Source: Armatimonadota bacterium
GTDB taxonomy: Bacteria > Armatimonadota > SYMT01
Direction of reading: 5' to 3'
Assembly (NCBI GenBank): GCA_046292385.1
Contig: JBKBRF010000021.1
Location: 32,001-96,000, forward strand
DNA length: 64,000 nt
Under the pieces are notes generated by a model. That model was not told where the DNA came from. It saw only the letters and a list, made by a program, of their open reading frames with translations, and did not search any database. The position numbers and the translations under genes were made by a program. Each line of letters begins with the position of its first letter. Position 1 is the stretch's first letter. Below are positions 4,901 to 61,375 of this stretch, piece by piece.

Positions 4901-4950
4901 CCTCGGACTGAAGTCGAGGCTACAGAGAGCAAAGCCCGCCTGCGCGGGCT
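4901..4950 (-). repeat. GTAG-type REP-like palindrome plus second hairpin
   Basis: Minus strand reads GTAG-CCTCGACTTCAGTCCGAGG (imperfect hairpin); AGCCCGCCTGCGCGGGCT hairpin at 4933-4950; lies between convergent genes. Confidence 0.6.
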
Positions 4951-5040
4951 GAGGACAGCCGCGCAGCGATTGCATTCTATTCCTGGTGTTCGGAATAGTT
5001 GGTCGGCGGCTGGGGGGCCATCCAGCCGCCGACCGGCTCC

Positions 5041-6108: not shown

Positions 6109-6942
6109 ATGCGCGTCGGGCATTTCCAGTACGAGGTCCAGCCGGAGGGCTACGCGAGCAACATCGAGACCGTTCTGCGCGGCCTGACCATGGCGGATGC
6201 GCGAGGGGTGGAGATCGTCAGTTTCCCTGAGTGCGGGCTGACAGGCTACTTCGACCGCGAGGAGCCGACCCGCAAGCACGCGCTCTCCCTGGACGGGCCC
6301 GAGATCCGCAGCTTTCTGGAGCAGAGCGGCCACTTCAAGGCGACCTGCATCGTCGGCTTCAACGAGCGGCGCGGGGACGACCTCTACAACACCGCCCTGG
6401 TGGCGCAGGGCGGAAAGCTGCTGGGGACCTACAGCAAGGCGTTCGCGTACCAGCCGTTCCACAAGCGCGGACGGGAGTTCCCCGTGTTCGAGCGCGCGGG
6501 CGTGAAGTTCGGCGTCATCATCTGCGCCGACGGCGGCTACGTGGAGCCGGCGCGGATTCTGGCGCTCAAGGGCGCCCGCATCCTCTTCGCACCCCACTAC
6601 AACTACATCGGCCAGCAGCACCTGCTCAGCCACTTCCAGAACGTCCGCAGCGACCACATCGCGCGTGCCGTCGAGAACGGCGTCTGGTTCGTGCGGGGCA
6701 ACAACTTCGTCCGCGGCCGGGACCGCGGCATGACGACCGACGGGGTCGGCTACGGCGACAGCTACGTCCTCGACCCGTTCGGTGAGATGCTGGTCCGCGC
6801 GCGGCGGCTGGTGGAGGACTTCATCGACGTGGAGATCGACTTCGACACCCCCGCCTACGATCGCGGGCGAGAAGACCGGAGCCGCCGCAGCGCGCGAGAG
6901 TTGGGACATCTCGTCGTGGAAGCCGCCCGGGCACGCGCCTGA
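6109..6942 (+). CDS. Carbon-nitrogen hydrolase (nitrilase superfamily)
   Basis: Glu-Lys-Cys triad motifs FPEC, YSK, ICAD; AGGAGG RBS. Confidence 0.9.
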
Positions 6943-6947
6943 ATCCC

Positions 6948-7022
6948 GCCGAAGTCGAGTCGGCCGCGGGTGACGGCGACCACCACCTCCCGACCCATGA
7001 TCGTCCGCTCCAGGTGGGCGTC
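6948..7022 (-). pseudogene. 75-bp fragment of a yjbQ allele (direct repeat of 7753-7827)
   Basis: 70/75 identical to the intact gene; translates [25 protein letters not shown]. Confidence 0.85.
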
Positions 7023-7052
7023 CACACTGTCGTCGGCGGGAACGACGTCGCG

Positions 7053-7439
7053 CTACCAGATCCGAGTGACCGGGTACCGGTCTAGAGATGCATCTCCGCT
7101 CACGAGCGGAACCAACTCGGCAATCGCCTGCCCAATCAACAGACGATCGAACGGGTCCCGATGATGGAACGGAAGCGTCGTCAAGACCCCTGTGTGCTCC
7201 GGAAGAATCGGGAGGATCTCGAAACCGTTCCCCTGGATCGCCTCGTACATGAATGCTCGGTATGGCTCGTTGAGAACATACTTCCCCAGGCTGATCTTGA
7301 TAGCGATCTCCCAGTATGAGGCGGGACTCACAAGCACCTGGTTGTCCGGCGCTGCGATCTGCTGACGTGCGACCGCACTGAGGCGTCCGTCCCCGAGTGC
7401 GAACCAGAGCAGTGCGTGCGTGTCCAGGAGAAGTCTCAC
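7053..7439 (-). CDS. vapC: Type II TA toxin, PIN domain (VapC)
   Basis: MRLLLDTHALLW...SPASYWEIAIK...HHRDPFDRLLIGQA. Confidence 0.95.
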   Translation of the reverse strand: MRLLLDTHALLWFALGDGRLSAVARQQIAAPDNQVLVSPASYWEIAIKISLGKYVLNEPYRAFMYEAIQGNGFEILPILPEHTGVLTTLPFHHRDPFDRLLIGQAIAELVPLVSGDASLDRYPVTRIW

Positions 7440-7663
7440 CCCGTGTACTCAGCGAAGTCGGACAAGTGTTCGTCATCCTCCGTGAGGATCGTCAACTTCC
7501 CGCGGCAGTTCCCGAAGACCGGTCTTGGTCGATTGCCACGCGGGGGAACCAGTTCCGCCACCGGTTGGGCATCCCGCGTGATGATGATCTCCTCACCGCC
7601 GGCAAGCCGGTCAATCAGCGCGGAGAGTTCACTTTGAGCCTTCTCTACAGAAACCTCCACCAT
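7436..7663 (-). CDS. Type II TA antitoxin, Phd/YefM family
   Basis: VSVEKAQSELSALIDRLAGGEEIIITR..PVAEL; ATG at 7663 with GAGGAG RBS; GTGA overlap with vapC. Confidence 0.9.
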   Translation of the reverse strand: MVEVSVEKAQSELSALIDRLAGGEEIIITRDAQPVAELVPPRGNRPRPVFGNCRGKLTILTEDDEHLSDFAEYTG

Positions 7664-7674
7664 CTCGTTCCTCC

Positions 7675-8097
7675 TCACTCTCCTATGATTTTAATCAGCA
7701 CCCGCTTGTCGCGCCGGCCGTCGAACTCGCCGTAGAAGATCTGCTCCCAGGTGCCGAAGTCGAGCCGGCCGCGGGTGACGGCGACCACCACCTCGCGGCC
7801 CATGATCGTGCGCTTCAGGTGGGCGTCGGCGTTGTCCTCTCCGGTGCGGTTGTGGTGGTAGACCTCGGGGCTCGGGTTGAACGGCGCCAGCTCCTCCAGC
7901 CACACTTCAAAGTCGTGCCACAAGCCGGGCTCGTGGTCGTTGATGAAGACGCTGCTCGTGATGTGCATCGAGTTGACCAGGCAGAGCCCCTCGCGGATGC
8001 CGCTCTCGCGGAGCTGCTGCTCCACCTGGGGCGTGATGTTCACGAAGCCGCGCTCGGTCGGCACGTGCAGAGTGAGGTAGTGGGTGTGGGATTTCAC
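7675..8097 (-). CDS. yjbQ: YjbQ/UPF0047 secondary thiamine-phosphate synthase family protein
   Basis: [38 protein letters not shown]. Confidence 0.93.
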
Positions 8098-8393
8098 GGT
8101 AGGTTGCTCGTTCGGTTAGGAAGGCGGGTACGGGCGCAGGCGCTAGCGCTCTGTCGTTACCGGAAGGGTGCGGCGTGCGCCGGTTGGATAAGCTTCACGC
8201 TTGATGATACCGCCAGAGCATGCGGCGCTGGCCGGCTCCAAGGACTTCCGTCTGTACTACTCCCCGCGAGAGTCTTGCCGGGATGCGCAGATTCTGCCGG
8301 CGGTAATCGCGCGCGTGACCTTGCGAACCGGGAGGAGCCAGTCTCGAGGCCTCTTTGCTTCTCTTCGAGATGCAGCCTCGATCCCGCTGTCCG

Positions 8394-8633
8394 ACCCCGC
8401 GCCCTTGTGCCGGGAGGCAGCCCTCCCGCGACGCAGGCCCTCCGCGGCCTTTTCACACTCCGCTGCGCTCCGTTAGCAGGCCGCTACGGGAGCTCACGTC
8501 GAGAAGCTTTTCCCGCGTCACCGCGTTGCACCGCCACAAGAGCAGGGTTCACGGGCTGCCTCCCGACCCTTCGAGTGACCACCCCTGCCGCCCAGGGGTG
8601 GTCACAACTGGCGCCCTACAGGCGCCTCCGGTC
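8394..8633 (-). ncRNA. Structured non-coding repeat, copy A (most diverged); candidate ncRNA or MITE
   Basis: Shares motif order with copies B and C; stem CGGGAGGCAGCCC/GGGCTGCCTCCCG and hairpin GTGACCACCCCTG..CAGGGGTGGTCAC. Confidence 0.55.
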
Positions 8634-8712
8634 TGGGCGCGACAGCCAGTCCGCGGGTTAGCCAAAGCCGGTGCAGCACGACCCGCTTCCCGCCAGGCGG
8701 TGTGAGGACCTG

Positions 8713-8969
8713 CGGAGCCCGGAGGCGCTGCCGAAGGCAGAGCCGGAGGGGTTCACTTGCGACCACCCCTGCGAGGGGTGGTCGCTTGAGCCGCCCGGAG
8801 CGGCCCATGAACCGTCGCCTCGCTGCAGGCGCCGCCTGCGGACGCGGAACGGAGCGCGCGGGGAGCACGCCCGCAGCGCCCGCTAGCGCAGGCGCAGCCG
8901 GAGCGTGAAAGGGCCGCGGAGGGCCACCCACGCGGGAGGGCCGCTCCGGGTGGGGAGGGCGCGGGGTGG
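8713..8969 (+). ncRNA. Structured non-coding repeat, copy B
   Basis: Colinear reverse-complement match to 18975-19233 over ~257 nt; 16-bp stem 8791-8806/8938-8953. Confidence 0.6.
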
Positions 8970-9070
8970 ACCCTCGGCGCGATCCTGATCTCGACTGATC
9001 AAGCATTCACCCGCCGTCTTGGGTTTGGTTGCGGCATCAGCCGCGCTGTGGCTGTATTGTGGCACGGAAA

Positions 9071-9421
9071 ATGACGCAGCTAATCACAAACATCGGGATA
9101 GGGTGCTCCTTAGTGCTCATGCTGCTGCTATCGCCAGTTCTGCTCCCACTCATAGCGCTGTCAAACGCGAGGAAAGTGAAGCGGCGACGGGAAACCGCCG
9201 AGCGGACCGCGTGTGCAAGGAGCGGGCAGTTCCTCGGAGACCGGGCGCTACATCTTGCGGACGAGGAGTGGCATCGATACGTCGAAGAGCTTCGGCGCGA
9301 GAAACCCCACGTTCGTCTACGCCTGCAGCGAGGTACTCACGCCATCTGCCCCGGCTGCGGTCAGCGTTATGTCTACCAGGAGGCCGCGCGGCACTTCATA
9401 AGGATCGCGGAGCCTTCCTGA
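9071..9421 (+). CDS. Small hypothetical membrane-anchored protein with possible Zn-ribbon remnant
   Basis: N-terminal hydrophobic helix; CARS and CPGCG motifs; atypical codon usage. Confidence 0.55.
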   Translation: MTQLITNIGIGCSLVLMLLLSPVLLPLIALSNARKVKRRRETAERTACARSGQFLGDRALHLADEEWHRYVEELRREKPHVRLRLQRGTHAICPGCGQRYVYQEAARHFIRIAEPS

Positions 9422-9475
9422 GGGCCCCGGGGGGCCTCTCTGCGTCCTCGGCGGTCTCTGCGGTGGAATAAGGAG

Positions 9476-10201
9476 CTATTGGGAGCCGAAGAGCCGCTGA
9501 AAGAGCGACTTCCTCCGCTTCATGGCAAAGATCGGGAGCGTGCCGAAGCGCCGGATCTCCGTAGCCGGTCCGTAGCGACCCCAGGAGAAGCCACTGCCGA
9601 TCTCGCCCGCGCGGAGGTCGAAGATCTCATACGACGGGTCGAGCTGCCGCGCAAACGCCGCCAGCTCCGGATCCGGAGAGGCGAGGCACTCTTCCTGCGG
9701 GAGCACCCCCGGGTTGTGCCGCCACACCTCGCACAGGCGGTCCTCGTGGACGTCGTCAATGGCGCTCGTGAACGGCGGGGTATCCATCTTGAATACCTCC
9801 GTCAGGAAGTGCTCCAGCGAGGGGCTCTGGTGCAGGATCACCGGCGGATCGTGCGAAGCGAAATAGATCGGCGCCCAGTCGCGTGAGTCGGGGAGCAGGT
9901 CGGCCACCCAGAAGTTGCCGAAGCCGTCCGCGCCGATCGGCAGCCCGTGCGGGAAGGCGTCTGTGAACTCCCAGTCGAGCTCGCCGGTGAAGTCGACCGG
10001 CTCCACGGAGGCACCCTCGAAGCCGCGGCAGAACGCGAGCAGCTCCCGGATGTGGGGCGGCAGCGGGCACGGGAGCCGGGAGGCGAACAGCTCGATCTCG
10101 GCGTCGGTGAGGCCGGGAAGCAGCTCGATCCGCACCGGGTCGCCGTCCTCCGACTGCAGCGGCCGGCGGAGGGCGTCCTGAATGATCTCGACGGGTGTCA
10201 T
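9476..10201 (-). CDS. SMI1/KNR4 (SUKH) family protein
   Basis: PGLTDAEIELFASRLPCPLPPHIRELL and LPIGADGFGNFWVAD..PIYFASHDPP; start reassigned to ATG at 10201. Confidence 0.82.
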   Translation of the reverse strand: MTPVEIIQDALRRPLQSEDGDPVRIELLPGLTDAEIELFASRLPCPLPPHIRELLAFCRGFEGASVEPVDFTGELDWEFTDAFPHGLPIGADGFGNFWVADLLPDSRDWAPIYFASHDPPVILHQSPSLEHFLTEVFKMDTPPFTSAIDDVHEDRLCEVWRHNPGVLPQEECLASPDPELAAFARQLDPSYEIFDLRAGEIGSGFSWGRYGPATEIRRFGTLPIFAMKRRKSLFQRLFGSQ

Positions 10202-10376
10202 CGGGTGGATGTGGTTGATCGCGAGCTCTCCGGCAGAGCGTCCTGCCGCGGAATAGGTTCCACTCCGCGTCCTCTGCGTCCTCGGCGGTGAATTCCCGAA
10301 CAGGAACCCGCGCCGGGGTGCGCGAACTCTAAAGCCGTGGGGCGCACCGATGCGCGGCGCCCCGGGGAGCCAAACG

Positions 10377-11549
10377 ATGGACGCATTCCGGTTCAACCGC
10401 AGAGAGCTCTTGAAAGGCGCGGGCGCGCTTGCCGGGGCCGCCGCGTTCGGCAGCTTCGGGGCGGAGCGGCTCCTCGCCGCGCCGAAAGCCCCCACCTCTC
10501 CCGTTTCGATCGCGCGGTGCGCCACGTACGACCTCGCGACGGTGACCCGCCACCTGGAGACGATCTTCGACCAGCTCGGCGGCATCAAGAAGCAGGTCGC
10601 CGGGAAGACGGTCGTCGTCAAGGTGAACCTCACCGGCAGCCCGGAGGGGAAGGTCGACGGCCTCCCCGCCAATCGCACCTACCAGACCCACCCGAACACC
10701 GCGCTGGCGACGGCGATGCTGCTCGACCGCGCCGGGGCCCGCCGCATCCGCTTCGTGGAGTGCACCTACCAGCACGGCAGCATGGAAGAGTTCTTCCGCT
10801 CCGGCGGCTGGGATCTCCAGGCGCTGGCGGCGCTCAAGGCCGAAGTCGACTACGAGAACACCAGGAACCTGGGCAAGGGCAAGAGCTACACCCGCGTGAA
10901 GGTGCCGTGGGGCGGGTCGCTATTCCCCTCCTACGAGCTGAACCACTCGTACGTCGACTGCGACTATTACATCTCCCTCGCCAAGCTGAAGAACCACGCC
11001 AACGCGGGCGTGACCCTGGCGGTGAAGAACAACTTCGGCGTTACGCCGACGGCGCTCTACGGCCAGGCGGAGCACGACGAGAACACCACCAACGCGCGCG
11101 TGGCGATGTTCCACGAGGGCAAGATCAACCCGCCGGCCGGGGTGCCGCGAGAGCTGGACCCGACCAGCCCGCGGAAGCCGACTTACCGCGTGCCGCGGCA
11201 TACGGTCGACTCGCTCGGTATCCGGCCGATCGACCTGGCGCTCATCGATGGAGTGGAGACCGCTTCCGGCGGCGAAGGCCCGTGGGTCGGCAAGCTGACC
11301 CCGCGGAAGTCGCACGTGCTGATCGGCGGACGCAACGCGGTCTGCACCGACGCGATCGCCACCGCGGTGATGGGCTACGATCCGCTGGCGAAGTCCGGCA
11401 CCGGCCCGTTCCCGGGCGACAACCACCTGACGATGGCGATGGAGCTCGGGCTCGGCACGTGCAACCCGAAGCAGATCGAGGTGCGCGGTCTCGCGCTGAA
11501 GCAGGCGGTCCATCCGTTCGAGTGGGAGCCGGCGGAGCGCCACTTCTGA
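10377..11549 (+). CDS. Tat-exported DUF362 domain protein
   Basis: NRRELLK Tat motif; VVVKVNL, THP, KLKNH..AGVTLAVKN, DLALIDG..GEGP. Confidence 0.85.
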   Translation: MDAFRFNRRELLKGAGALAGAAAFGSFGAERLLAAPKAPTSPVSIARCATYDLATVTRHLETIFDQLGGIKKQVAGKTVVVKVNLTGSPEGKVDGLPANRTYQTHPNTALATAMLLDRAGARRIRFVECTYQHGSMEEFFRSGGWDLQALAALKAEVDYENTRNLGKGKSYTRVKVPWGGSLFPSYELNHSYVDCDYYISLAKLKNHANAGVTLAVKNNFGVTPTALYGQAEHDENTTNARVAMFHEGKINPPAGVPRELDPTSPRKPTYRVPRHTVDSLGIRPIDLALIDGVETASGGEGPWVGKLTPRKSHVLIGGRNAVCTDAIATAVMGYDPLAKSGTGPFPGDNHLTMAMELGLGTCNPKQIEVRGLALKQAVHPFEWEPAERHF

Positions 11550-11581
11550 CGCGCCGGAAGGTAACCAGCGACTTCATAAGG

Positions 11582-11611
11582 GCGGGTGCCGTGTCCTCGG
11601 CACCCGCTTTT
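11582..11611 (+). terminator. Intrinsic terminator
   Basis: GCGGGTGCCG/CGGCACCCGC stem followed by TTTT. Confidence 0.7.
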
Positions 11612-11639
11612 CCGTTCATAGCCCCGAGGATGATCGAAC

Positions 11640-11918
11640 ATGCTTGCGTTTGTCGACTTCGTGCCGCGGCAGGTGCGCGCGCCGCGCCTCAGCTTCTCGC
11701 TGTCCGACATGCAGGGACAGTGCGAGACGTTCGAGGCTGCGCTCCAAGCCGCGAATCCCTGGCTCCGGCGGGCGAACGCCCGCGTGGTGAACGTGGAGAC
11801 GGTGGTGCTGCCGAACCTCTGGGCGCCGGGCGAGCAGGGCAGCACCGATCCCGTCATCGCGACCGCCGAGCACGCCAGCTTCCACCAGTTCATCCGCGTC
11901 TGGTATCACGCCGAATAG
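11640..11918 (+). CDS. Small hypothetical protein
   Basis: Protein-like 92-aa ORF (DFVP..ETFEAALQAANPW..VVNVETVVLPN..QFIRVWY) with GAGGA RBS. Confidence 0.7.
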   Translation: MLAFVDFVPRQVRAPRLSFSLSDMQGQCETFEAALQAANPWLRRANARVVNVETVVLPNLWAPGEQGSTDPVIATAEHASFHQFIRVWYHAE

Positions 11919-12152
11919 TCTTTCCGCCAGCGGCGGGACTTCGCTGTTCCAGGTTGGCAAGTTGGCAGGTTGCAGGTTAATTCCCCGCGTAGCCCGGCTC
12001 GGGAGCCTGTGAGCCTGCGGACCTGGAGCCCGCCAACTCGCTTCCGGCAGCAGCTACTCAGAACGTTTCCCCACTTAACTCTCCTGGCATGTCCCTTAGG
12101 GAGGCCCCTCGCGGGCGACCGCGGGGGCCCCGGAACACGTCGGGAGGGAGAC

Positions 12153-12560
12153 ATGAGACAGATCATGAGAATTGCCGGTGCGCTGGCGTTGGCCGGCGGC
12201 CTGGTACTGCCGGTCGGCGCGCAGGAGACGACGGAACACCTGCCGTCGGTGGAGATCAACGGTCAGCGGGTGCTCACGATTCGGGTCGGCGCGGGCGGCC
12301 TGACACCGGAGGAACGGGCGGACGTCGTGCGCCAGCGGTTGGGGCCGATCTTGACGATGCCGGACCTCAAGGCGGAGGACATCTGGATCAAGCAGGAGCG
12401 GCGAGGGCAGACCGCCGCGATCTACGTGCGGGACCGATTGTTGATCACGGTGGACCGCAGCCTGGCGAAGGCGAACGACACGATGCCGCTGCCGCTGGCG
12501 CGGATCTGGGCCAACAACCTTCGCGAGACACTGCCCGAGATCGACGTCACGGTCCGGTAG
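12153..12560 (+). CDS. Secreted hypothetical protein
   Basis: GGGAGGGAG RBS, signal peptide, host-like codon usage. Confidence 0.75.
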   Translation: MRQIMRIAGALALAGGLVLPVGAQETTEHLPSVEINGQRVLTIRVGAGGLTPEERADVVRQRLGPILTMPDLKAEDIWIKQERRGQTAAIYVRDRLLITVDRSLAKANDTMPLPLARIWANNLRETLPEIDVTVR

Positions 12561-12569
12561 CTGAGCGCT

Positions 12570-12610
12570 GAACAGCGGGCCGGAGGATTTTACCCTCCGG
12601 CCCGCTGTTC
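12570..12610. terminator. Likely bidirectional terminator between convergent genes
   Basis: 17-bp perfect stem GAACAGCGGGCCGGAGG/CCTCCGGCCCGCTGTTC. Confidence 0.7.
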
Positions 12611-12628
12611 TTGCGGGAGAGCCTATCC

Positions 12629-15421
12629 CTATCCCGCGAAGAGCTTCAGCCGCCGCTCCAGCTTTTCGCGCCGCTCCAGCAGCTCGTCGCGCTGGGCGCG
12701 GGCCTTCTCCACCACCTCCGCGGGAGCGCGGCTGACGAAGCTCTCGTTGGAGAGCCGCCCGTCGATCCCGGCGAGGTCCTTCGTGATGGCGGCGAGCTCC
12801 TTGTTCAGGCGCGCCGTCTCCGCCGCGGGGTCGACCAGCCCCGCCATCGCTACGGAGATCTCCATCCCCGCCGCCAGCGCGGTCGAGCTGGGCCCCTCCG
12901 GCTTCTCCCGAGTCACCCGGCAGCGGGCGCTCTGCTCCACGTACGGGATCTCCAGCTTACCGTCACCCAGGATCGAGACGTCGACCGTCCGCTGCTGCGC
13001 GTTCAACTCCGCCTTGAGATTGCGGATGGCACGGGTCACCTCCATCACCGTTTCCATCCGGGCCTCCGCGTCGGCGCTCCGCAGTTCCGCCAGGGCGCCC
13101 GGGTACTGCGCGCGGATCAGGGCCGCGCCTTCGGTCGCGCCGGGGAGCGACTGCCAGATTTCCTCCGTGATGAACGGCACGAACGGATGCGCCAGCCGCA
13201 GCGAGGCCTCCAGCACTGCCACCAGCATCTCCCGGATCAGCGACGGGTCTTCGCTGCGCAGGCGCGGCTTCGCCAGCTCCACGTACCAGTCCGCGAACTC
13301 GTCCCACAGGAAGTGGTAGAGCGTCCACGACGCCTCCCCCAGGGCGTACCGGTCGAGCGCGTCGTTCACCGCGGCGGAGGCGGCGGCGAAGCGGGAGAGG
13401 ATCCAGCGGTCCGAAAGCTCCAGCTCCTGCCGCGCCGCCAGCTCCTCCAGGGAGCGGCGCGCCACCTCCGCGCCTTCCACGTTCATCAGGACGAACCGGC
13501 TGATGTTCCAGAGCTTGTTGCAGAAGAAGCGCATCTGCTCGATCTGCTCCGCCCGCGCCAGCCGGTCGTCCGGGCCGGTCGCCGTCTTGCCGCCCGACTC
13601 CCACTGCATCTTGAAGCGGATGTCCTGGCTCTCGCTCACCAGGCTGGTGAGGCCGAAGCGGGTGGCGTCCGCCCCGTACAGCCGGATCAGCTCCAGCGGG
13701 TCCACGCCGGTGCCGAGGGACTTGCTCATCCGCTTGCCGTCTTCGGTCATCACGGTGGCGTGTACCAGGACCTCGTGGAACGGTACCTCCCCGAGGAACT
13801 CCTCGCCGGTCATGATCATCCGTGCCACCCAGAGGTAGAGGATGTCCCGGCCGGTGATCATCAGGTCGGTCGGGTAGAACGCCGCCAGGTCATCCGTCCG
13901 CTCCGGCCAGCCCAGCGTGGCGTGGGGCCAGAGGGCGCTGCTGAACCAGGTATCCAGCACGTCCGGGTCCTGCTCCAGCTCGCTGCCGCCGCAGCGCGGG
14001 CACTGCGACGGCGGCTCCACCGAGGCGATCGGCTGCGCGCTCTCCCCCACCTGCAGCTCGCCGGAGGGACCGCGGCTCACCGCATCGTCGCACGCCAGGC
14101 AGTAGAAGAGCGGAATGCGGTGTCCCCACCAGAGCTGGCGGGAGACGCACCAGGGGCGGATGTTCTCCAGCCACTCCGTCTCCATCTGCCGAAACCGCTC
14201 CGGCGTGAAGGTCACCCGGTTCGCGCGGATCGCCGCCAGCGCCTTCGCCGCCAGCTCGTCGCAGCGGGCCCACCACTGCAGCTTGAGCAGCGGCTCCACC
14301 ACCGTGCCGCACTTGTCGTGGTGGCCCACCGAATGGGTGTAGTCCTCCACCTTCACCAGCAGGCCCTGCGCCTCCAGGTCCGCCACCACCCGCTTGCGGG
14401 CTTCCTTCCGCGGCAGCCCCGCGTAGGCGCCGGCCGCCCCGGTGGTCGTTCCCGCGTCGTCCAGCACGGTGATCGCCGGGAGCAGCTCCGGGTGGCGCTG
14501 GGCAATGTCCCAGTCGTTGGGGTCGTGCGCCGGGGTCACTTTCACGGCGCCGGTGCCGAACTCCGCGCTCACGTGGTGATCCGCCACCACCGGGATCTCC
14601 CGGTCCACCAGCGGCAGCCGCAGCGTCTTGCCCACCAGGCCGGCGTAGCGGGGGTCGGACGGGTTCACCGCCACCCCCGTGTCACCGAGCATCGTCTCCG
14701 GGCGGGTGGTCGCCACCACCAGCCCCTCGCCGCCGTCCGCCGCGGGGTAGCGGAGGTGCCACAGGTGCGACGGCACCTCCTTGTACTCCATCTCCAGCTC
14801 GGAGAGGGTGGTGCGGCACTGCGGGCACCAGTTCACGATCCGCTCCGCGCGGTAGATCCAGCCGCGCTCGTAGAAGCCGACGAACGCGCTCAGCACTGCG
14901 CGGGCGTAGCCGCTGCGGGTGTAGAGCTTCCGGAGCGCCCAATCGGCGGTCTGCGGCCCCTCCTCCACGAACTCGTCCAGCGTAAAGCGGGTGCGGGTCC
15001 AGTCGTAGGAGCAGCCGAGCGCCTTGAGCTGGCCCAGGATGGTGCCGCCGTACTTGAGCGTCCACTCCCGCGCGCGCTGGAGGAAGCCCTCGCGGCCGAG
15101 GGTCCAGCGGTCGAGCCCCTCCGCGCGGATCATCTGCTCCACCTTCATGTTGGTGGCGATGCCGGCGTGGTCGGTGCCGGGCACGCAGAGGGTGTTGAAG
15201 CCCTGCATCCGCTTGCGGCGGATCACCAGGTCGTGGATCGCGTGCTGCAGCGCGTGGCCCATGTGCAGCTCGCCGGTTACGTTCGGCGGCGGGATGGTGA
15301 CGCAGAACGACGGCGCCTCCGACTTCCCGGCAGGGGTAAAGTCGCCGCGCTCCAGCCAGAACTGGTAGAGACGCGCCTCCACGTCGGTAGGATCGTATGC
15401 CTTCGAAAGCTCGCGTGCCAT
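12629..15421 (-). CDS. valS: Valine--tRNA ligase
   Basis: PPPNVTGELHMGH (HIGH), ATTRPETMLGD, WCVSRQLWWGH, RMSKS (KMSKS), C-terminal coiled coil. Confidence 0.98.
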   Translation of the reverse strand: MARELSKAYDPTDVEARLYQFWLERGDFTPAGKSEAPSFCVTIPPPNVTGELHMGHALQHAIHDLVIRRKRMQGFNTLCVPGTDHAGIATNMKVEQMIRAEGLDRWTLGREGFLQRAREWTLKYGGTILGQLKALGCSYDWTRTRFTLDEFVEEGPQTADWALRKLYTRSGYARAVLSAFVGFYERGWIYRAERIVNWCPQCRTTLSELEMEYKEVPSHLWHLRYPAADGGEGLVVATTRPETMLGDTGVAVNPSDPRYAGLVGKTLRLPLVDREIPVVADHHVSAEFGTGAVKVTPAHDPNDWDIAQRHPELLPAITVLDDAGTTTGAAGAYAGLPRKEARKRVVADLEAQGLLVKVEDYTHSVGHHDKCGTVVEPLLKLQWWARCDELAAKALAAIRANRVTFTPERFRQMETEWLENIRPWCVSRQLWWGHRIPLFYCLACDDAVSRGPSGELQVGESAQPIASVEPPSQCPRCGGSELEQDPDVLDTWFSSALWPHATLGWPERTDDLAAFYPTDLMITGRDILYLWVARMIMTGEEFLGEVPFHEVLVHATVMTEDGKRMSKSLGTGVDPLELIRLYGADATRFGLTSLVSESQDIRFKMQWESGGKTATGPDDRLARAEQIEQMRFFCNKLWNISRFVLMNVEGAEVARRSLEELAARQELELSDRWILSRFAAASAAVNDALDRYALGEASWTLYHFLWDEFADWYVELAKPRLRSEDPSLIREMLVAVLEASLRLAHPFVPFITEEIWQSLPGATEGAALIRAQYPGALAELRSADAEARMETVMEVTRAIRNLKAELNAQQRTVDVSILGDGKLEIPYVEQSARCRVTREKPEGPSSTALAAGMEISVAMAGLVDPAAETARLNKELAAITKDLAGIDGRLSNESFVSRAPAEVVEKARAQRDELLERREKLERRLKLFAG

Positions 15422-15454
15422 TGCCTCACTCCGCCGCGCCCAACCGGCGCCAGA

Positions 15455-15700
15455 AAACAAAAAGCTCCCTCGTCCCCGAAGGACGAGAGAGTCACTTCTC
15501 CCGCGGTACCACCTTCATTCCCCCGCGGCCGGCGCGAGGGCTCTCTTGCGCGATGACGGGCGCACCCGGTCCCGCACGGGACCCGGCTCCGGGGCGACGT
15601 TCGGCGCCGGCACGCGAGGAGCGCTCTCAGCCGGTGACGCTCCCTCTCTGGCGCTGCCCCCGCGGAACCCGCGGACGCCTACTCTTCCCCATCACAGCCG
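15455..15700 (-). promoter_or_regulatory. Val T-box riboswitch with terminator
   Basis: Minus strand shows GAAGAGTAG, AGAGAG, GGCTGAGA, specifier GAAC-GTC (Val; + strand 15596-15598), T-box AAGGTGGTACCGCG, and terminator CTCTCTCGTCC-TTCG-GGGACGAGGGAG-CTTTTTGTTTT. Confidence 0.93.
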
Positions 15701-15719
15701 GAAAACCAGTTGTGGCGGA

Positions 15720-15748
15720 ATGATAACACGAGGTCCGGACGTCGGCAA
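15720..15748 (-). promoter_or_regulatory. Sigma70-type promoter for the T-box/valS leader
   Basis: TTGCCG-17 nt-TATCAT immediately upstream of T-box stem I. Confidence 0.7.
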
Positions 15749-16086
15749 CCGTGCCGCGCGGATGCGGTGACACCGGTCCGGAACGAGTACCCCTGAAGGA
15801 GCACCTTGTTCGTGTAGCAGCCCGCTGATGAAGGTCAGCTAGATAGCTGGGAAGCCAGGCGGAGCATCCGTCGGGCCGCGAGGCATTGGAATACCTCGCT
15901 AGAAGGCCTGCGGCCACGCGTCCTCCGGACGCCCGAGCTACGCCCATCTGAGCCCCCGCAGGGGGGTCCCCCGTCCGGGGCCTAAAACTTCGTGCTGTGG
16001 TTGCCGCGGATTCAACCGCCCGGCATATGGCTTCGAAGCCAGGACCGGAGAGTGAGCTGCGGGACTCAGTCTCCGGTCTACGGCCA

Positions 16087-17550
16087 CTACCGAATACCGG
16101 TGCCGGCCAGCACCCGAACGGTGTACTTGATCTTGCCCTTCTTCTTCAGCTTCTTGAAGCGCAGGGTCGTCTTCGCCGTCTCACCCGCGGCGAGCACCCC
16201 GTCCGACCCGACGTTCAGGTCGAGGTACGGGCTGCCGGCCGGGAGCGTCTCAGTCGTGCTGCCGCTGGCGTTGACCAGGGTATCAACTGGGCTCAGCTCG
16301 TCCAGCACCAGGGAGACGGGGCCGGTGATCGGCTGCTTGGAGACGTTCTTCACGGACACCTTCTGGAGGTACTGCTTCTTCTTGGGCGAGTACTTGAAGC
16401 CGCTGGTCTTCACCTTGACCCGCTTCGTGACGTCCTCCACCTGGACCGGCGCGTTGGCCGGGTTCGCGCGGGCGATCACCTGCACGCCGCCGGCGAGGGT
16501 CGCCTTGAAGGCGATCTGGCCCTGGTCGTTGATTCCCTCGCGGCTCAGCTCCACCGTCTGGACCGTTCCGCCCAGCAGCGTATCGCCGGTCGCGATCACC
16601 TTGTCCGCCACCGGGTCCGGTCCGGTGAAGATGCCCCAGCCGGACGGCACCTTCGCCAGGAACGCCACCGTCCCGTTCGCGATCGTCACCGCCTGAAAGT
16701 TGCTGTAGCCGTGGTCGGTGCTGGCGATCAAGGTCTGGTTCTTGTAGACCTCCTGCCTTCCGCCTTCCAGATAGCCGATATAGGCGACGTCCCCGTCATT
16801 CGCGGGGCTGTCGTGGAAGCCGATGAAGCGGTCGGTCGTGTCCGCGATGCGGCTGACCGCGCCGTTCGAGTAGGAGACGATGGCGCTCGGGCCGGCGCGG
16901 CCGTCGACCCGGTAGGTGGCGTAGAAGGCCGCGGAGAAGCCGAGGGCGGTCGGATTGTTCGGGTCCCCCTCGAAGTTCAGGTCCGGGTCCCTCACGTAGA
17001 TGAACTGGCTGTCGTCCTCCGTGCTGACCGCCGGGCTTCCGGGCACGCCGCCGTTCAGATCGGTGAGGAAGATCCCGCTCGCCCGTCCGGTGCCACCGGC
17101 GAGGTAGGCCACCACGCCGCCCTCGACCGACGGCTTGTTCGGCGAGAGCCCCTGCCGAACATCGAAAACCGTGCCGCCGCTGCTGGTGTAGAGCCCGATG
17201 AACGACTGCGGCGGATCGACGTTGGGGTTCCAGCGGGAGCCGATGAAGACGACCTGTCCGGAGCTGGTGAGGTCGAACTCCTGGGAGATGGAGGTGAACG
17301 GACCGGTGGGGGAGCTGGTCACCAGCGCTTCCGGATCGTCCCCACTCCCGCGGAAGATCCCCGAGCCGCCCCCGACGATGCGGGCCCAGTAGGCCACCTG
17401 CCCCGAGGCATTGATCGCCGGACGGCTGAGGGAGTCGACCTCCGTGCGGGTGTCCTTGATGATCGTGAAAGTGTAATTGGCGGCGCGTGCCGGCAGCGCG
17501 GCGAAGAGCCCTCCCACCAGGAGAAGGCCCAAGAGCAAACGATACTTCAA
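16087..17550 (-). CDS. Secreted NxxGxxAF-repeat (choice-of-anchor-like) protein with basic C-terminal beta domain
   Basis: Signal peptide; repeats INASGQVAY, NDGDVAY, NGTVAF, INDQGQIAF; Lys-rich C-terminal domain; TTG start with GAGGAG RBS. Confidence 0.7.
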   Translation of the reverse strand: MKYRLLLGLLLVGGLFAALPARAANYTFTIIKDTRTEVDSLSRPAINASGQVAYWARIVGGGSGIFRGSGDDPEALVTSSPTGPFTSISQEFDLTSSGQVVFIGSRWNPNVDPPQSFIGLYTSSGGTVFDVRQGLSPNKPSVEGGVVAYLAGGTGRASGIFLTDLNGGVPGSPAVSTEDDSQFIYVRDPDLNFEGDPNNPTALGFSAAFYATYRVDGRAGPSAIVSYSNGAVSRIADTTDRFIGFHDSPANDGDVAYIGYLEGGRQEVYKNQTLIASTDHGYSNFQAVTIANGTVAFLAKVPSGWGIFTGPDPVADKVIATGDTLLGGTVQTVELSREGINDQGQIAFKATLAGGVQVIARANPANAPVQVEDVTKRVKVKTSGFKYSPKKKQYLQKVSVKNVSKQPITGPVSLVLDELSPVDTLVNASGSTTETLPAGSPYLDLNVGSDGVLAAGETAKTTLRFKKLKKKGKIKYTVRVLAGTGIR

Positions 17551-17788
17551 AACTACTCCTCGTGCGCCCGTCGGGCGCTAGCGTATCACGTCCCCCGCGG
17601 ACTTCCGACGTCCGGGAGAAGCCGAGTCAGTTCGTCGGCAGGCAGCGGCCCGCAAAGCAGTCGCGCGGGGAGGTAGCTCCAGGCGGTTTGCCCAGGCAGC
17701 GAGCTAGCGCCGTTGCAGGGGGAGTGTAGCACCCAACCAGGCAGCCGCCTGTGAACCAAGCCACAGGGCCGCGCCCAGGCAGGGACCG

Positions 17789-18829
17789 TTACCGCCGGTA
17801 CTTGAGCGTCCAGATCTCGGTCGACTGCGGGAGGCGGGAGCGGGCCAGGAGCGTCACGTCGCTGGCGAGGCGGCTGACGGCGTAGGGGCTGGCGGCGATG
17901 AAGTCGTCCACCGGGCGCAGCTTCGCGGCGGCGCCGGACATGCCGGGGGTGGAATAGGCCATCGGGACCACCACCGGCGGCTTGAGCTGCTCGGAGATCG
18001 CGACCGCCTGCCGCGGCGTGAGCCCCTCGCCCACCGGCAGCAGCAGCACGTCGACCTTCCCCAGCGCGGCCAGCTCGGCGTCGGTGGGCGGCTGGGTGGG
18101 GGCGCCCAGGTGGGCGAGCCGCAGCGGTCCCGCTTCGATCACGTACGCGGTGTTGCCGCCGCGAGTCGGCACCGGGGTGATCCGCAGGTCGCCACGGGTG
18201 CCCTGGGCGGCGCGAAGCACCTGCTTGGTGTCGTCCTGGAAGGCGCGGACGCCTGCCTCGTAGCTGTGGCGGGGATCGCTGCTGCTGACCGTCACGAAGT
18301 GCGCGCCGGCTTCCGGCGAGGGAATCCCCGCGGCGGCCGGGTCGAACGGGTCGGTCACCACCCCCACCCCGCCCGGCGAGTGGATGTAGAACGAGGAGTA
18401 GCCGAGCCACTGGAGCGTCACCTCGGCGTCCCCCGTCGTGCTGAGCGGGGGGTGGTCGTTCGGGAGGCCTTCCGGCGGCGTGGCAGGCCGTTCCGCGGCC
18501 ACCGGCGGCTGCGCGCCGTTTGCCGGGTCAGTACCGGGAGCAACCGGTCTGTTTCCCGCGGGCGAATTGGCGGGAGCCCCGCCATTCGGCGCGTCGGTAG
18601 TGGCGGGGACTGGGGCATTGCCGGGGCTGGAGGCGCCGGGACTGTTCTGCGGGTGGGAGCTCTGCGCCCGGCGGTCCGGACCGTTCGCCGGCGTGGGCGG
18701 CGGCGGAGCCGGGCGGGAGACTACCGCCACGATGCCGATCGTGAGCACGGCCAGGACTGCCGCGATCAGGCCGGCCCGCGGCGGGCCGCCGGGGCGGACG
18801 GGAGAGGGTTCCGGCTTTTCCGTACTCAT
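17789..18829 (-). CDS. Membrane-anchored MBL-fold (Lactamase_B_3-like) protein with degenerate metal site
   Basis: TM helix, Pro-rich linker, LQWLGYSSFYI..VVTDPF..VDVLLLPVG..PMAY; HxHxDH replaced by SSDPRH. Confidence 0.75.
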   Translation of the reverse strand: MSTEKPEPSPVRPGGPPRAGLIAAVLAVLTIGIVAVVSRPAPPPPTPANGPDRRAQSSHPQNSPGASSPGNAPVPATTDAPNGGAPANSPAGNRPVAPGTDPANGAQPPVAAERPATPPEGLPNDHPPLSTTGDAEVTLQWLGYSSFYIHSPGGVGVVTDPFDPAAAGIPSPEAGAHFVTVSSSDPRHSYEAGVRAFQDDTKQVLRAAQGTRGDLRITPVPTRGGNTAYVIEAGPLRLAHLGAPTQPPTDAELAALGKVDVLLLPVGEGLTPRQAVAISEQLKPPVVVPMAYSTPGMSGAAAKLRPVDDFIAASPYAVSRLASDVTLLARSRLPQSTEIWTLKYRR

Positions 18830-18974
18830 AGCAGGCGTGCTCCTGGTGACGTGGCGCCACGGAGATTCTACGATGAGCGCGGCGGGATGTCCCACTGGCT
18901 GGTGTGAGGTCCGAGAGAAGCGCGCTGCTGAAACTCCACGCCTCCGCGCCCTCGCATCTTCCGTCCCGAAGTTC

Positions 18975-19233
18975 CCACCCCGTGCCCTCCCCGGACGGAG
19001 CGGCCCTCCCGCGTGAGTGGCCCTGCGCGGCCCTTTCACGCTCCGCCTCCGGCTTCGCTAGCGGGCGCTACGGGCGTGCTACTCGCCGCGTTGCGCTCCG
19101 CGACCGATAGCGACGTCTTCGGCGAGACGGCGATTCACGGGCCGCTCCGTCCGGCTCAAGCAGCCACCCCTCGCCAGGGGTGGCCACAAGGGGAACCCTT
19201 CGGACCTGCCTTCGGCACACCCTCCGGGCTCCG
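18975..19233 (-). ncRNA. Structured non-coding repeat, copy C
   Basis: Perfect 16-bp stem 18991-19006/19139-19154; hairpin GCCACCCCT/AGGGGTGGC; colinear with copy B. Confidence 0.6.
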
Positions 19234-19318
19234 ACGGCCGAACACGCTGGGACCGAAGGCAGGTTCGTCGAGCGTCGGGCAGGTGCCGCCGCGCTGGCAT
19301 GAGATACACTCCCCCGAG

Positions 19319-61303: not shown

Positions 61304-61375
61304 TGGGCACGACAGGATTCGAACCTGTGACCCCTTCGGTGTGAACGAAGTGCTCTACCACTGAGCCACGCGCCC
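61304..61375 (-). tRNA. tRNA-Val (anticodon CAC), CCA not encoded
   Basis: GGGCGCGTGGCTCAGTGGTAGAGCACTTCGTTCACACCGAAGGGGTCACAGGTTCGAATCCTGTCGTGCCCA folds as a cloverleaf. Confidence 0.96.

Follow-up and report, generated by a model that had tools for sequence, protein, structure and literature searches.

The window analysed here is a stretch of 64,000 nucleotides (nt) from the metagenome-assembled genome (MAG) of an uncultured member of the Armatimonadota (genome G000; window G000:C21:32001–96000). It carries three copies of a structured repeat unit, A (8394–8633), B (8713–8969) and C (18975–19233), with ~80 nt separating the neighbouring copies A and B. The original prediction for this DNA, made from the letters alone, described a three-copy element at these positions; all three copies, the enclosing-stem sequences quoted for each and the ACCCCT..AGGGGT hairpin are present in the sequence. 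A repeat search of the window identifies B and C as a ~260-nt inverted repeat, 77–88% complementary, and A and C as direct repeats. R1, a covariance model of the core built from the copies (219 model positions), has exactly three matches within the window, with cores at 8391–8609 (minus strand, 197.8 bits), 8755–8970 (plus strand, 168.6 bits) and 18974–19191 (minus strand, 182.2 bits).

Units A and B lie within a composite ~800-bp element (8251–9050) comprising a left tail, unit A (folded strand minus), a spacer, unit B (folded strand plus) and a right tail. The left tail (8251–8390, minus) is the 3′ tail of unit A and includes a subterminal hairpin, GAGAGTCT...AGATTCTG. Next come the core fold of unit A, assigned by blastn to an A-type subfamily, and its 5′ hairpin (P0; 8607–8640, minus), placed by the predicted fold and by an alignment of the P0 region. 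The spacer between the divergent units (8641–8710), defined in an alignment of 25 doublets, is variable in length and sequence and lacks a sigma-70-like site. Unit B, of the B/C-type subfamily, begins with a predicted P0 (8711–8754, plus) capped by a C-GAA-G triloop. Its plus-strand core, read against an alignment of 68 units (A1, described below), contains helices P1 (8762–8770/8774–8782), an outer stem (8783–8787/8957–8961), the long stem P2 (8792–8806/8938–8952), Pb (8876–8881/8911–8917) and Pc (8886–8887/8903–8904). The 3′ tail of unit B, which forms the right end of the composite (8971–9050, plus), harbors two hairpins, a small terminal one (CGGGG-UGGA-CCCUCG, from 8962) and a subterminal one (GCGGC-ATCA-GCCGC); this right tail is common to the ~800-bp copies and about 10 of the 36 solo B units of the genome. 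Unit C is a solo unit of B/C type, with a predicted core fold and, at 19192–19235 (minus), a predicted P0 that belongs to the inverted repeat with unit B.

Genome-wide, the element is far more numerous. Searching G000 (7.04 Mb in 91 contigs, 98% complete, 69% GC) by blastn with A, B and C yielded 149 loci, 127 of which are at least 180 nt long (66 A type and 61 B/C type, 67–94% identical to the queries), and R1 matched 142 of the 150 G000 candidates scored (E up to 0.001). G000 carries at least 135 copies of the structured repeat; the proposed set of three is thus correct for the window but not for the genome. In metagenome contigs, summed depth over the most conserved part of the core is ~110-fold that over the unique flanks, in line with the copy number from blastn and R1. 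Unit identity has a median of 69% over all pairs and 86% to the nearest paralog, with a maximum of 98%. The family also supplies an explanation for many assembly breaks and spurious open reading frames in these high-GC Armatimonadota MAGs.

The core spans ~220 nt (250–315 nt with the 5′ hairpin and 3′ tail) and contains 38 pairs in five helices: P1 (9 bp), the outer stem (5 bp), P2 (15 bp), Pb (7 bp) and Pc (2 bp). P1 and P2 are placed inside the outer stem, and P2 encloses a multi-branch region ending in the conserved Pb/Pc hairpin, where Pc closes a purine-rich internal loop and a small hairpin. The joining strands are near-invariant (GUGAAC, CGCGG, GCUAGC, GUGAAAG, GGAGGGCC and CGCGGGAGGGC). 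The core is followed by a small 3′ hairpin and then a subfamily-specific tail. P0 precedes P1, and in 77 of 114 units a C-GNA-G triloop (GGA 39, GCA 18, GAA 10, GTA 9) closes a P0 stem of 4 bp or more. C-GNA-G triloops form unusually stable DNA mini-hairpins.

Covariation within this fold is extensive. Mutual information computed on a first MAFFT alignment, in which 124 units were read opposite to C(+), revealed nested covarying pairs. In alignment A1, comprising 63 units of G000 and five of a related genome, G005, and made by MAFFT rather than from structure, standard pairs make up 96.6% of the 2558 cells, compared with 80.5% after shuffling (none of 500 shuffles reached 96.6%), and sliding the partner by 1–3 columns reduces pairing to 41–51%. 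Two-sided changes occur in 24 of the 38 pairs and in 390 cells, compared with 113 cells after shuffling and 22–89 after sliding; because the rows are paralogs, the shuffle figures overstate independence. A second set of 24 units from genomes G004, G005 and G006, which represent three other genera, was aligned to R1 and is 93.0% paired (75.4% shuffled), with two-sided changes in 26 of 38 pairs, although five of these units were also in the seed and the alignment, being fitted to R1, leans towards the model. In G005, P1 and P2 are wholly unlike those of G000 in sequence, with pairing intact and the joining motifs kept. The compensatory stem changes first noticed among A, B and C are confirmed, and go far beyond chance.

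The register of Pc given by RNAalifold was dropped, as another register covaries, G-C against A-U. Possible additional helices, considered on MAFFT alignments, are P3, Pa, a CGCG:CGCG pairing and an outermost 5′–3′ helix. In the region of window 8783/8761, and at the equivalent positions of other copies, three more pairs (G:C, U-G, G:C) can lengthen P1, in competition with the 5′ arm of the outer stem. The U-G has become a Watson–Crick pair in both A and B, by a different change in each copy. This extension could be an alternative pairing or a switch.

The strand to which the fold belongs can be assigned. Over the five helices in 124 units, G-U pairs outnumber A-C mismatches by 288 to 39 when read on the minus strand of A, the plus strand of B and the minus strand of C, the same strands on which the original prediction had seen its wobbles. 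The difference is found in P2 (72 G-U, 8 A-C) and the outer stem (183 and 3, counting an invariant U-G pair), whereas P1 (21 and 15) and Pb (10 and 12) show no bias. The invariant outer-stem U-G pair is present in 68 of 68 units of A1 and 24 of 24 of the second set, and RNAalifold also favours this strand. Either strand of a single copy folds better than shuffled sequence (for B, z −3.7 and −5.1), so folding of single sequences cannot settle the strand; it is the excess of G-U far above A-C, together with the invariant U-G pair, that assigns the fold to strand A−/B+/C−.

Selection on the fold was assessed from 101 nearest-paralog pairs with 3769 compared base pairs. Unpaired core columns differ at 14.7% between nearest paralogs, a rate inflated by hypervariable and poorly aligned columns; the contrast with the paired columns is nonetheless large. 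One-sided changes number 209 against about 944 expected (97 keeping a wobble, 112 broken), and two-sided changes 197 against 81 expected, with pairing kept in 178 of the 197. These data show that the fold has been maintained by selection during copy divergence, on one strand only. The proposal of a single-stranded molecule under selection for structure is accordingly supported from three sides: strand bias, covariation and the changes between nearest paralogs.

The 127 copies of at least 180 nt form 102 elements: 41 solo A units, 36 solo B/C units and 25 doublets. All 25 doublets have one layout, in which A, a spacer and reverse-complemented B follow each other and the two folded strands diverge (16 read A+B−, nine B+A−). 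Their halves are ~67% alike and each folds on its own; in some doublets about 25–35 nt lie between the two P0 hairpins. Eleven doublets, including that of the window, are full-length ~800-bp elements with 80–100% identity. Five further copies keep both termini and have internal deletions, and three aligned ~400-bp forms have a B unit between the left 45 nt and the right tail; the left piece of the ~400-bp form occurs on about 10 of the 36 solo B units. In doublets and composites alike, the 3′ ends of the folded strand face outward, toward the element boundaries.

The ends of the composites are sharply defined. Homology stops abruptly at window 8251 (TCTGTACTAC...) and 9050 (...GCGCTGTG) in 19 aligned copies, and metagenome contigs part from the window sequence at the same two positions. 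The composites have no terminal inverted repeats (TIRs), the left end TCTGTACTAC... being unrelated to the reverse complement of the right end, CACAGCGCGG.... Target-site duplications (TSDs), which the original prediction had proposed to look for, were not seen: the flanks of the aligned composites contain no direct repeat. CTGT is present at both junctions, and each end has a subterminal hairpin, the left and right hairpins differing in sequence. No target tetranucleotide is conserved, the last 5 nt of the left flanks showing only a preference for C/T, and within G000 the left and right ends occur only in non-coding copies. Runs of short TCTGTG-like repeats surround at least six copies. The ~800-bp copies at G000:C10:72538, C16:36749, C18:35248 and C8:55700 are examples within TCTGTG/TCCCTCTGTG-like runs, which terminate in ...tgtcgaaaaa and are possibly an insertion target.

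Copies are intergenic and show no orientation preference toward adjacent genes. Judged by crude GC3-rule gene calls, 88 of the 102 elements have no overlap with genes, and the neighbours of solo units are oriented same/same in 20 cases, same/opposite in 20, opposite/same in 16 and opposite/opposite in 15. No protein family is enriched within 2.5 kb of the G000 units, and in G004, G005 and G006 the adjacent genes are unrelated housekeeping genes. Neither a sigma-70-like promoter nor an intrinsic terminator was matched within the element, the single terminator-like match (9182–9200) lying outside it; in solo units the only conserved sequence 5′ of P0 is a short CCAGAAACC-like motif, present in many of the A type. 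A prophage-like region of G000 (contig C40, about 18000–40000), encoding a terminase large subunit, an SPP1-type portal, a capsid protein, a tail-completion protein and Rad52, carries eight units, all on the minus strand and thus antisense to the late genes (GC skew +0.11). In G005 (C3:824000–842000, positions 6650–14850), a type I-E CRISPR-Cas locus (cse2, cas7, cas5, cas6e, cas1, cas2) contains two arrays, and behind each lies a tandem pair of units on the strand from which the array is transcribed. Neither of the two CRISPR arrays of G000 has a unit within 3 kb; a general link to CRISPR was consequently rejected and the G005 association treated as local.

The family has a narrow distribution. 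When R1 was run on a sample of 151 genomes of the phylum, scoring up to 15 candidates per genome under stricter filters, matches were confined to G000 and to three of the other six family genomes; the 144 genomes from outside the family had none. With 150 candidates scored, G005 has 15 matches, G006 eight and G004 two, while G001 and G002 have none, so that at least 135 copies in G000 compare with 2–15 in related genera. G005 has four divergent doublets and two tandem pairs, and G006 has tandem runs. One spacer, between the PfkB and NIF3 genes, contains a doublet in G005, whereas the orthologous 158-nt spacer of G000 (contig C55) contains none. The G000 spacer (C55:5952–6110) has runs of a CAGGTT/AACCTG heptamer-like inverted repeat, and that of G005 (1750–2140 of its locus) has CACGCATTACGCATCACG-like tandem repeats.

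Searches of wider collections were in keeping with this distribution. The 800-bp element had no blastn match in plasmids and phages. Motif scans returned two loci in viral contigs, neither an R1 match, and 84 loci in metagenome contigs, about the chance number, with true units in five of the 80 loci scanned with R1. In genome contigs nine loci were returned, eight in the contigs of one Armatimonadota MAG and one, a motif match only, in a Nocardioides genome. The repeat family was found only in one Armatimonadota family, a small group of bacteria from soil and hot springs. None of the Rfam 15 families matches the copies at its gathering threshold: cmscan of the whole window reported only a tRNA and one CRISPR-DR28 match, both elsewhere, and at E up to 10 the region 8200–9100 gave four matches of 13–20 bits against thresholds of 38–52. 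Among publication titles and the opening parts of abstracts, none was found that joins Armatimonadota with such repeats.

Turning to genes that might act on the element, the linked HUH/RAYT transposase or reverse transcriptase envisaged by the original prediction was not found. Profile searches of G000 gave no match for RVT_1 or for TnpB (PF07282, PF01385), with positive controls working; RRXRR (PF14239), which stands for IscB, was also without a match, a weak blank given that its control matched in no genome. Two IS110-type recombinase genes are encoded in G000, with no R1 unit at either locus. Two Y1 genes are also encoded, both called IS200-type by NCBIfam (RAYT model 21.7, cut-off 80). The first (C22:55627–55965, 148 aa) adjoins inverted copies of the 26-nt GGCTGCGCTGCGCTGACCCCCGGCTA, which occurs 23 times in G000 at up to four mismatches; this gene and its repeat look like a separate REP/RAYT-type system. 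The second (C51:25843–26415, 141 aa) is bracketed by 39-nt inverted repeats, each with a hairpin GCGAGGGGTT-GAAA-AACCCCTCGC found nowhere else in G000. Co-occurrence of units with Y1 transposase genes was considered and set aside as not clean, the gene being present also in two unit-free genomes of the family. A guide-like relation of the hypervariable inner region to its flanks was likewise rejected: its longest words in common with its own flanks (6–11 nt; six of 51 mis-anchored cases left out) equal those of a control using the flanks of other copies.

Several features are shared with known repeat systems. As in REP/BIME/REPIN–RAYT systems, the repeats are intergenic, high-copy, non-autonomous and lineage-restricted, with a hairpin-forming unit. 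Inverted doublets with a spacer, which define a REPIN (PMC3337134), occur here 25 times in G000 and, as divergent doublets, four times in G005. However, the REP/REPIN unit is a 20–40-nt palindrome, whereas the present unit has about 220–315 nt, five covarying helices and conserved junctions, and the single-copy Y1 gene flanked by the repeat in REP/REPIN–RAYT systems has no counterpart, as our units flank no Y1 gene. IS200/IS605-derived PATEs and IS608 resemble the composites in lacking TIRs and TSDs and in having subterminal hairpins near both ends, a likeness confined to the ~800-bp and ~400-bp composites, as solo units are without these ends. IS608 transposes as single-stranded DNA (ssDNA) and shares a strand-specific fold tolerating G-T; CTGT at both junctions is found here. 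In contrast to PATEs and IS608, the left and right subterminal hairpins differ, no target tetranucleotide is conserved and no cognate transposase was found; nor do the ends match those of an autonomous tnpA/tnpB insertion sequence in the same genome, as PATE ends do, no tnpB having been found.

Other classes differ more plainly. MITEs of DDE type have TIRs and a TSD, both absent from the composites, and group II introns and retrons come with a reverse transcriptase and an RNA-model match, whereas G000 has no RVT_1 and the units no Rfam match. ERIC/IRU, Correia (NEMIS), RUP and BOX are long imperfect palindromes or mosaics with TIRs. Like our family they are dispersed, intergenic, 100–300 nt long, RNA-foldable and modular, but they differ from its multi-branched fold, its single-stranded motifs invariant across genera and its lack of TIRs. 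HEARO/IscB and IS605-orfB/TnpB omega RNAs, raiA, ROOL and GOLLD are comparable in size, in having many protein-less copies per genome, in their strong covariation and in a function not evident from context, yet none matches in Rfam 15 by sequence or structure. TnpB/IscB omega RNAs differ further in that no TnpB gene was found here, the RRXRR search was blank (with a control that matched nowhere) and no guide-like relation to the flanks is seen. IS110 bridge RNAs and IS1111 seekRNAs are encoded beside a DEDD recombinase and have loops complementary to their own ends and to the target; here, neither IS110-type gene has an R1 match, and the variable region matches its own flanks no better than the control. 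The family is a bacterial interspersed repeat with an elaborate single-strand fold under selection at 60–85% copy identity, and the selected multi-helix fold sets it apart from simple REP or MITE hairpins.

We propose, as a reading that we hold to be somewhat probable, that the family is a structured repeat, specific to its lineage, mobile but non-autonomous, and dependent on its one-strand fold for propagation. Its behaviour is that of a mobile repeat rather than of a few RNA genes, because copies are scattered between unrelated genes in both orientations, are expanded in number and occur as doublets and sharp-ended composites, and because the PfkB–NIF3 spacer is filled in G005 and unfilled in G000. 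Independent transcription units are disfavoured because no promoter or terminator matches within the element and doublet spacers are short and variable. Two further observations count towards mobility: the C-GNA-G triloops of 77 of the 114 P0 hairpins, and the location of all eight prophage-region copies on one strand. Of the initial interpretation, the strand-specific single-stranded fold under selection is retained, while the set of three gives way to a dispersed family with doublets and composites. The folded molecule could be RNA or ssDNA. A trans-acting factor may recognise the fold in a single-stranded intermediate while the element is copied or moved, and this intermediate would be ssDNA, as for HUH/Y1 enzymes, or a transcript. 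Decidedly unlikely, in our estimate, is a more far-reaching version: an undescribed kind of mobile element, in which a ~250-nt structured RNA/ssDNA module directs its own copying or insertion, perhaps acting like a ribozyme or a guide together with an unrecognised enzyme of the host or a phage, the divergent doublet being the complete transposing unit and phages one vehicle.

Several observations weigh against the mobile repeat. No pair of copies is near-identical (nearest-neighbour median 86%, maximum 98%), and there is no sign of recent movement among the G000 copies. Selection on old copies suits functional RNA genes as well as it suits the source lineages of a mobile element, and the copies behind the statistics are paralogs. 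Profile searches of G000 identified no mobilising protein: each of the two Y1 genes lies far from any unit and has its own, different flanking hairpins, and Y1 genes occur in six of the seven family genomes, two of which lack units. In contigs of four metagenome DNA runs, no empty site of the window's copy was seen, none of the contigs bridging such a site and none spanning the whole stretch. Solo units lie on the G-rich strand in 11 of 42 cases where skew is marked (p 0.003), or 11 of 36 without contig C40 (p 0.03), and the bias is gone in wider windows. This weak preference for the C-rich strand is opposite to that expected of IS608-like insertion, and the relation of orientation to GC skew is suggestive, parameter-dependent and partly driven by one contig.

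Among other explanations, the main one, which we consider unlikely though deserving of serious attention, is that the units are expressed structured non-coding RNA genes with a host function, such as a protein-binding or regulatory RNA, all copies working and the family grown by duplication. Such genes would account for the ongoing selection, visible in pairing preserved between even the closest paralogs with no young or identical copies, and for the low copy numbers (2–15) in G004, G005 and G006; the complex multi-helix fold, joining strands near-invariant across four genera, strand-specific G-U excess and invariant U-G pair would also be expected. Left unexplained are the missing promoters, the modular sharp-ended composites and the burst in copy number: no promoter or terminator is conserved, solo copies have nothing conserved 5′ of P0, some doublets leave only about 25–35 nt between P0 hairpins, and more than 135 copies that have diverged to 59–84% identity, and that include modular doublets, composites with sharp ends and variants with internal deletions, look mobile. 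Positions are moreover not syntenic between genera in the tested case (the PfkB–NIF3 spacer), and the folded strand is antisense to all late genes in the prophage-like region.

We regard as quite improbable a scaffold or guide RNA of an unrecognised RNA-guided mobile system, akin to TnpB/IscB omega RNA or IS110 bridge RNA, with most copies protein-less and served in trans. HEARO/omega RNAs were likewise seen as protein-less copies before their function was known, and the present copies recall that early view. A multi-copy, structured, strand-specific unit of about 220–300 nt, with folded-strand 3′ ends facing the boundaries of doublets and composites, composite ends without TIR or TSD, and two IS110-type recombinase genes in G000 would all fit, but the TnpB profiles found nothing while their controls worked (the RRXRR blank coming with a control that matched nowhere), no unit lies at the two IS110 loci, the variable region shares with its own flanks the 6–11-nt words of the control (six mis-anchored cases left out), and neither HEARO nor another Rfam family matches. 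Already disfavoured, and very improbable in our view, is an origin of the paired changes as a by-product of DNA copying between inverted-repeat arms, by template switching or gene conversion in quasi-palindromes, with no selected fold. The frequency of two-sided changes (197 against 81 expected) and the better-than-shuffled folding of both strands of single copies are compatible with such copying; however, P2 and the outer stem covary with arms 150–210 nt apart, a strand-symmetric process cannot yield the asymmetry of G-U over A-C with an invariant U-G pair, and the unpaired joining strands are conserved across genera.

If the mobile-repeat reading holds, the copies constitute a well-supported new family of structured elements that can now be described in the manner of Rfam: over 160 examples are available from four genera, 38 pairs covary and the strand is defined. 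A testable question then arises as to which enzyme reads a 220-nt multi-helix fold to move DNA.

Finally, two catalogue matches lie elsewhere in the window. The CRISPR-DR28 match at 4928–4951 (plus strand) scores 36.3 bits against a threshold of 35, stands alone without a tandem array in window 1–22000 and is probably a chance match. The other is a tRNA gene at 61304–61375 on the minus strand (Rfam RF00005, 71.8 bits).

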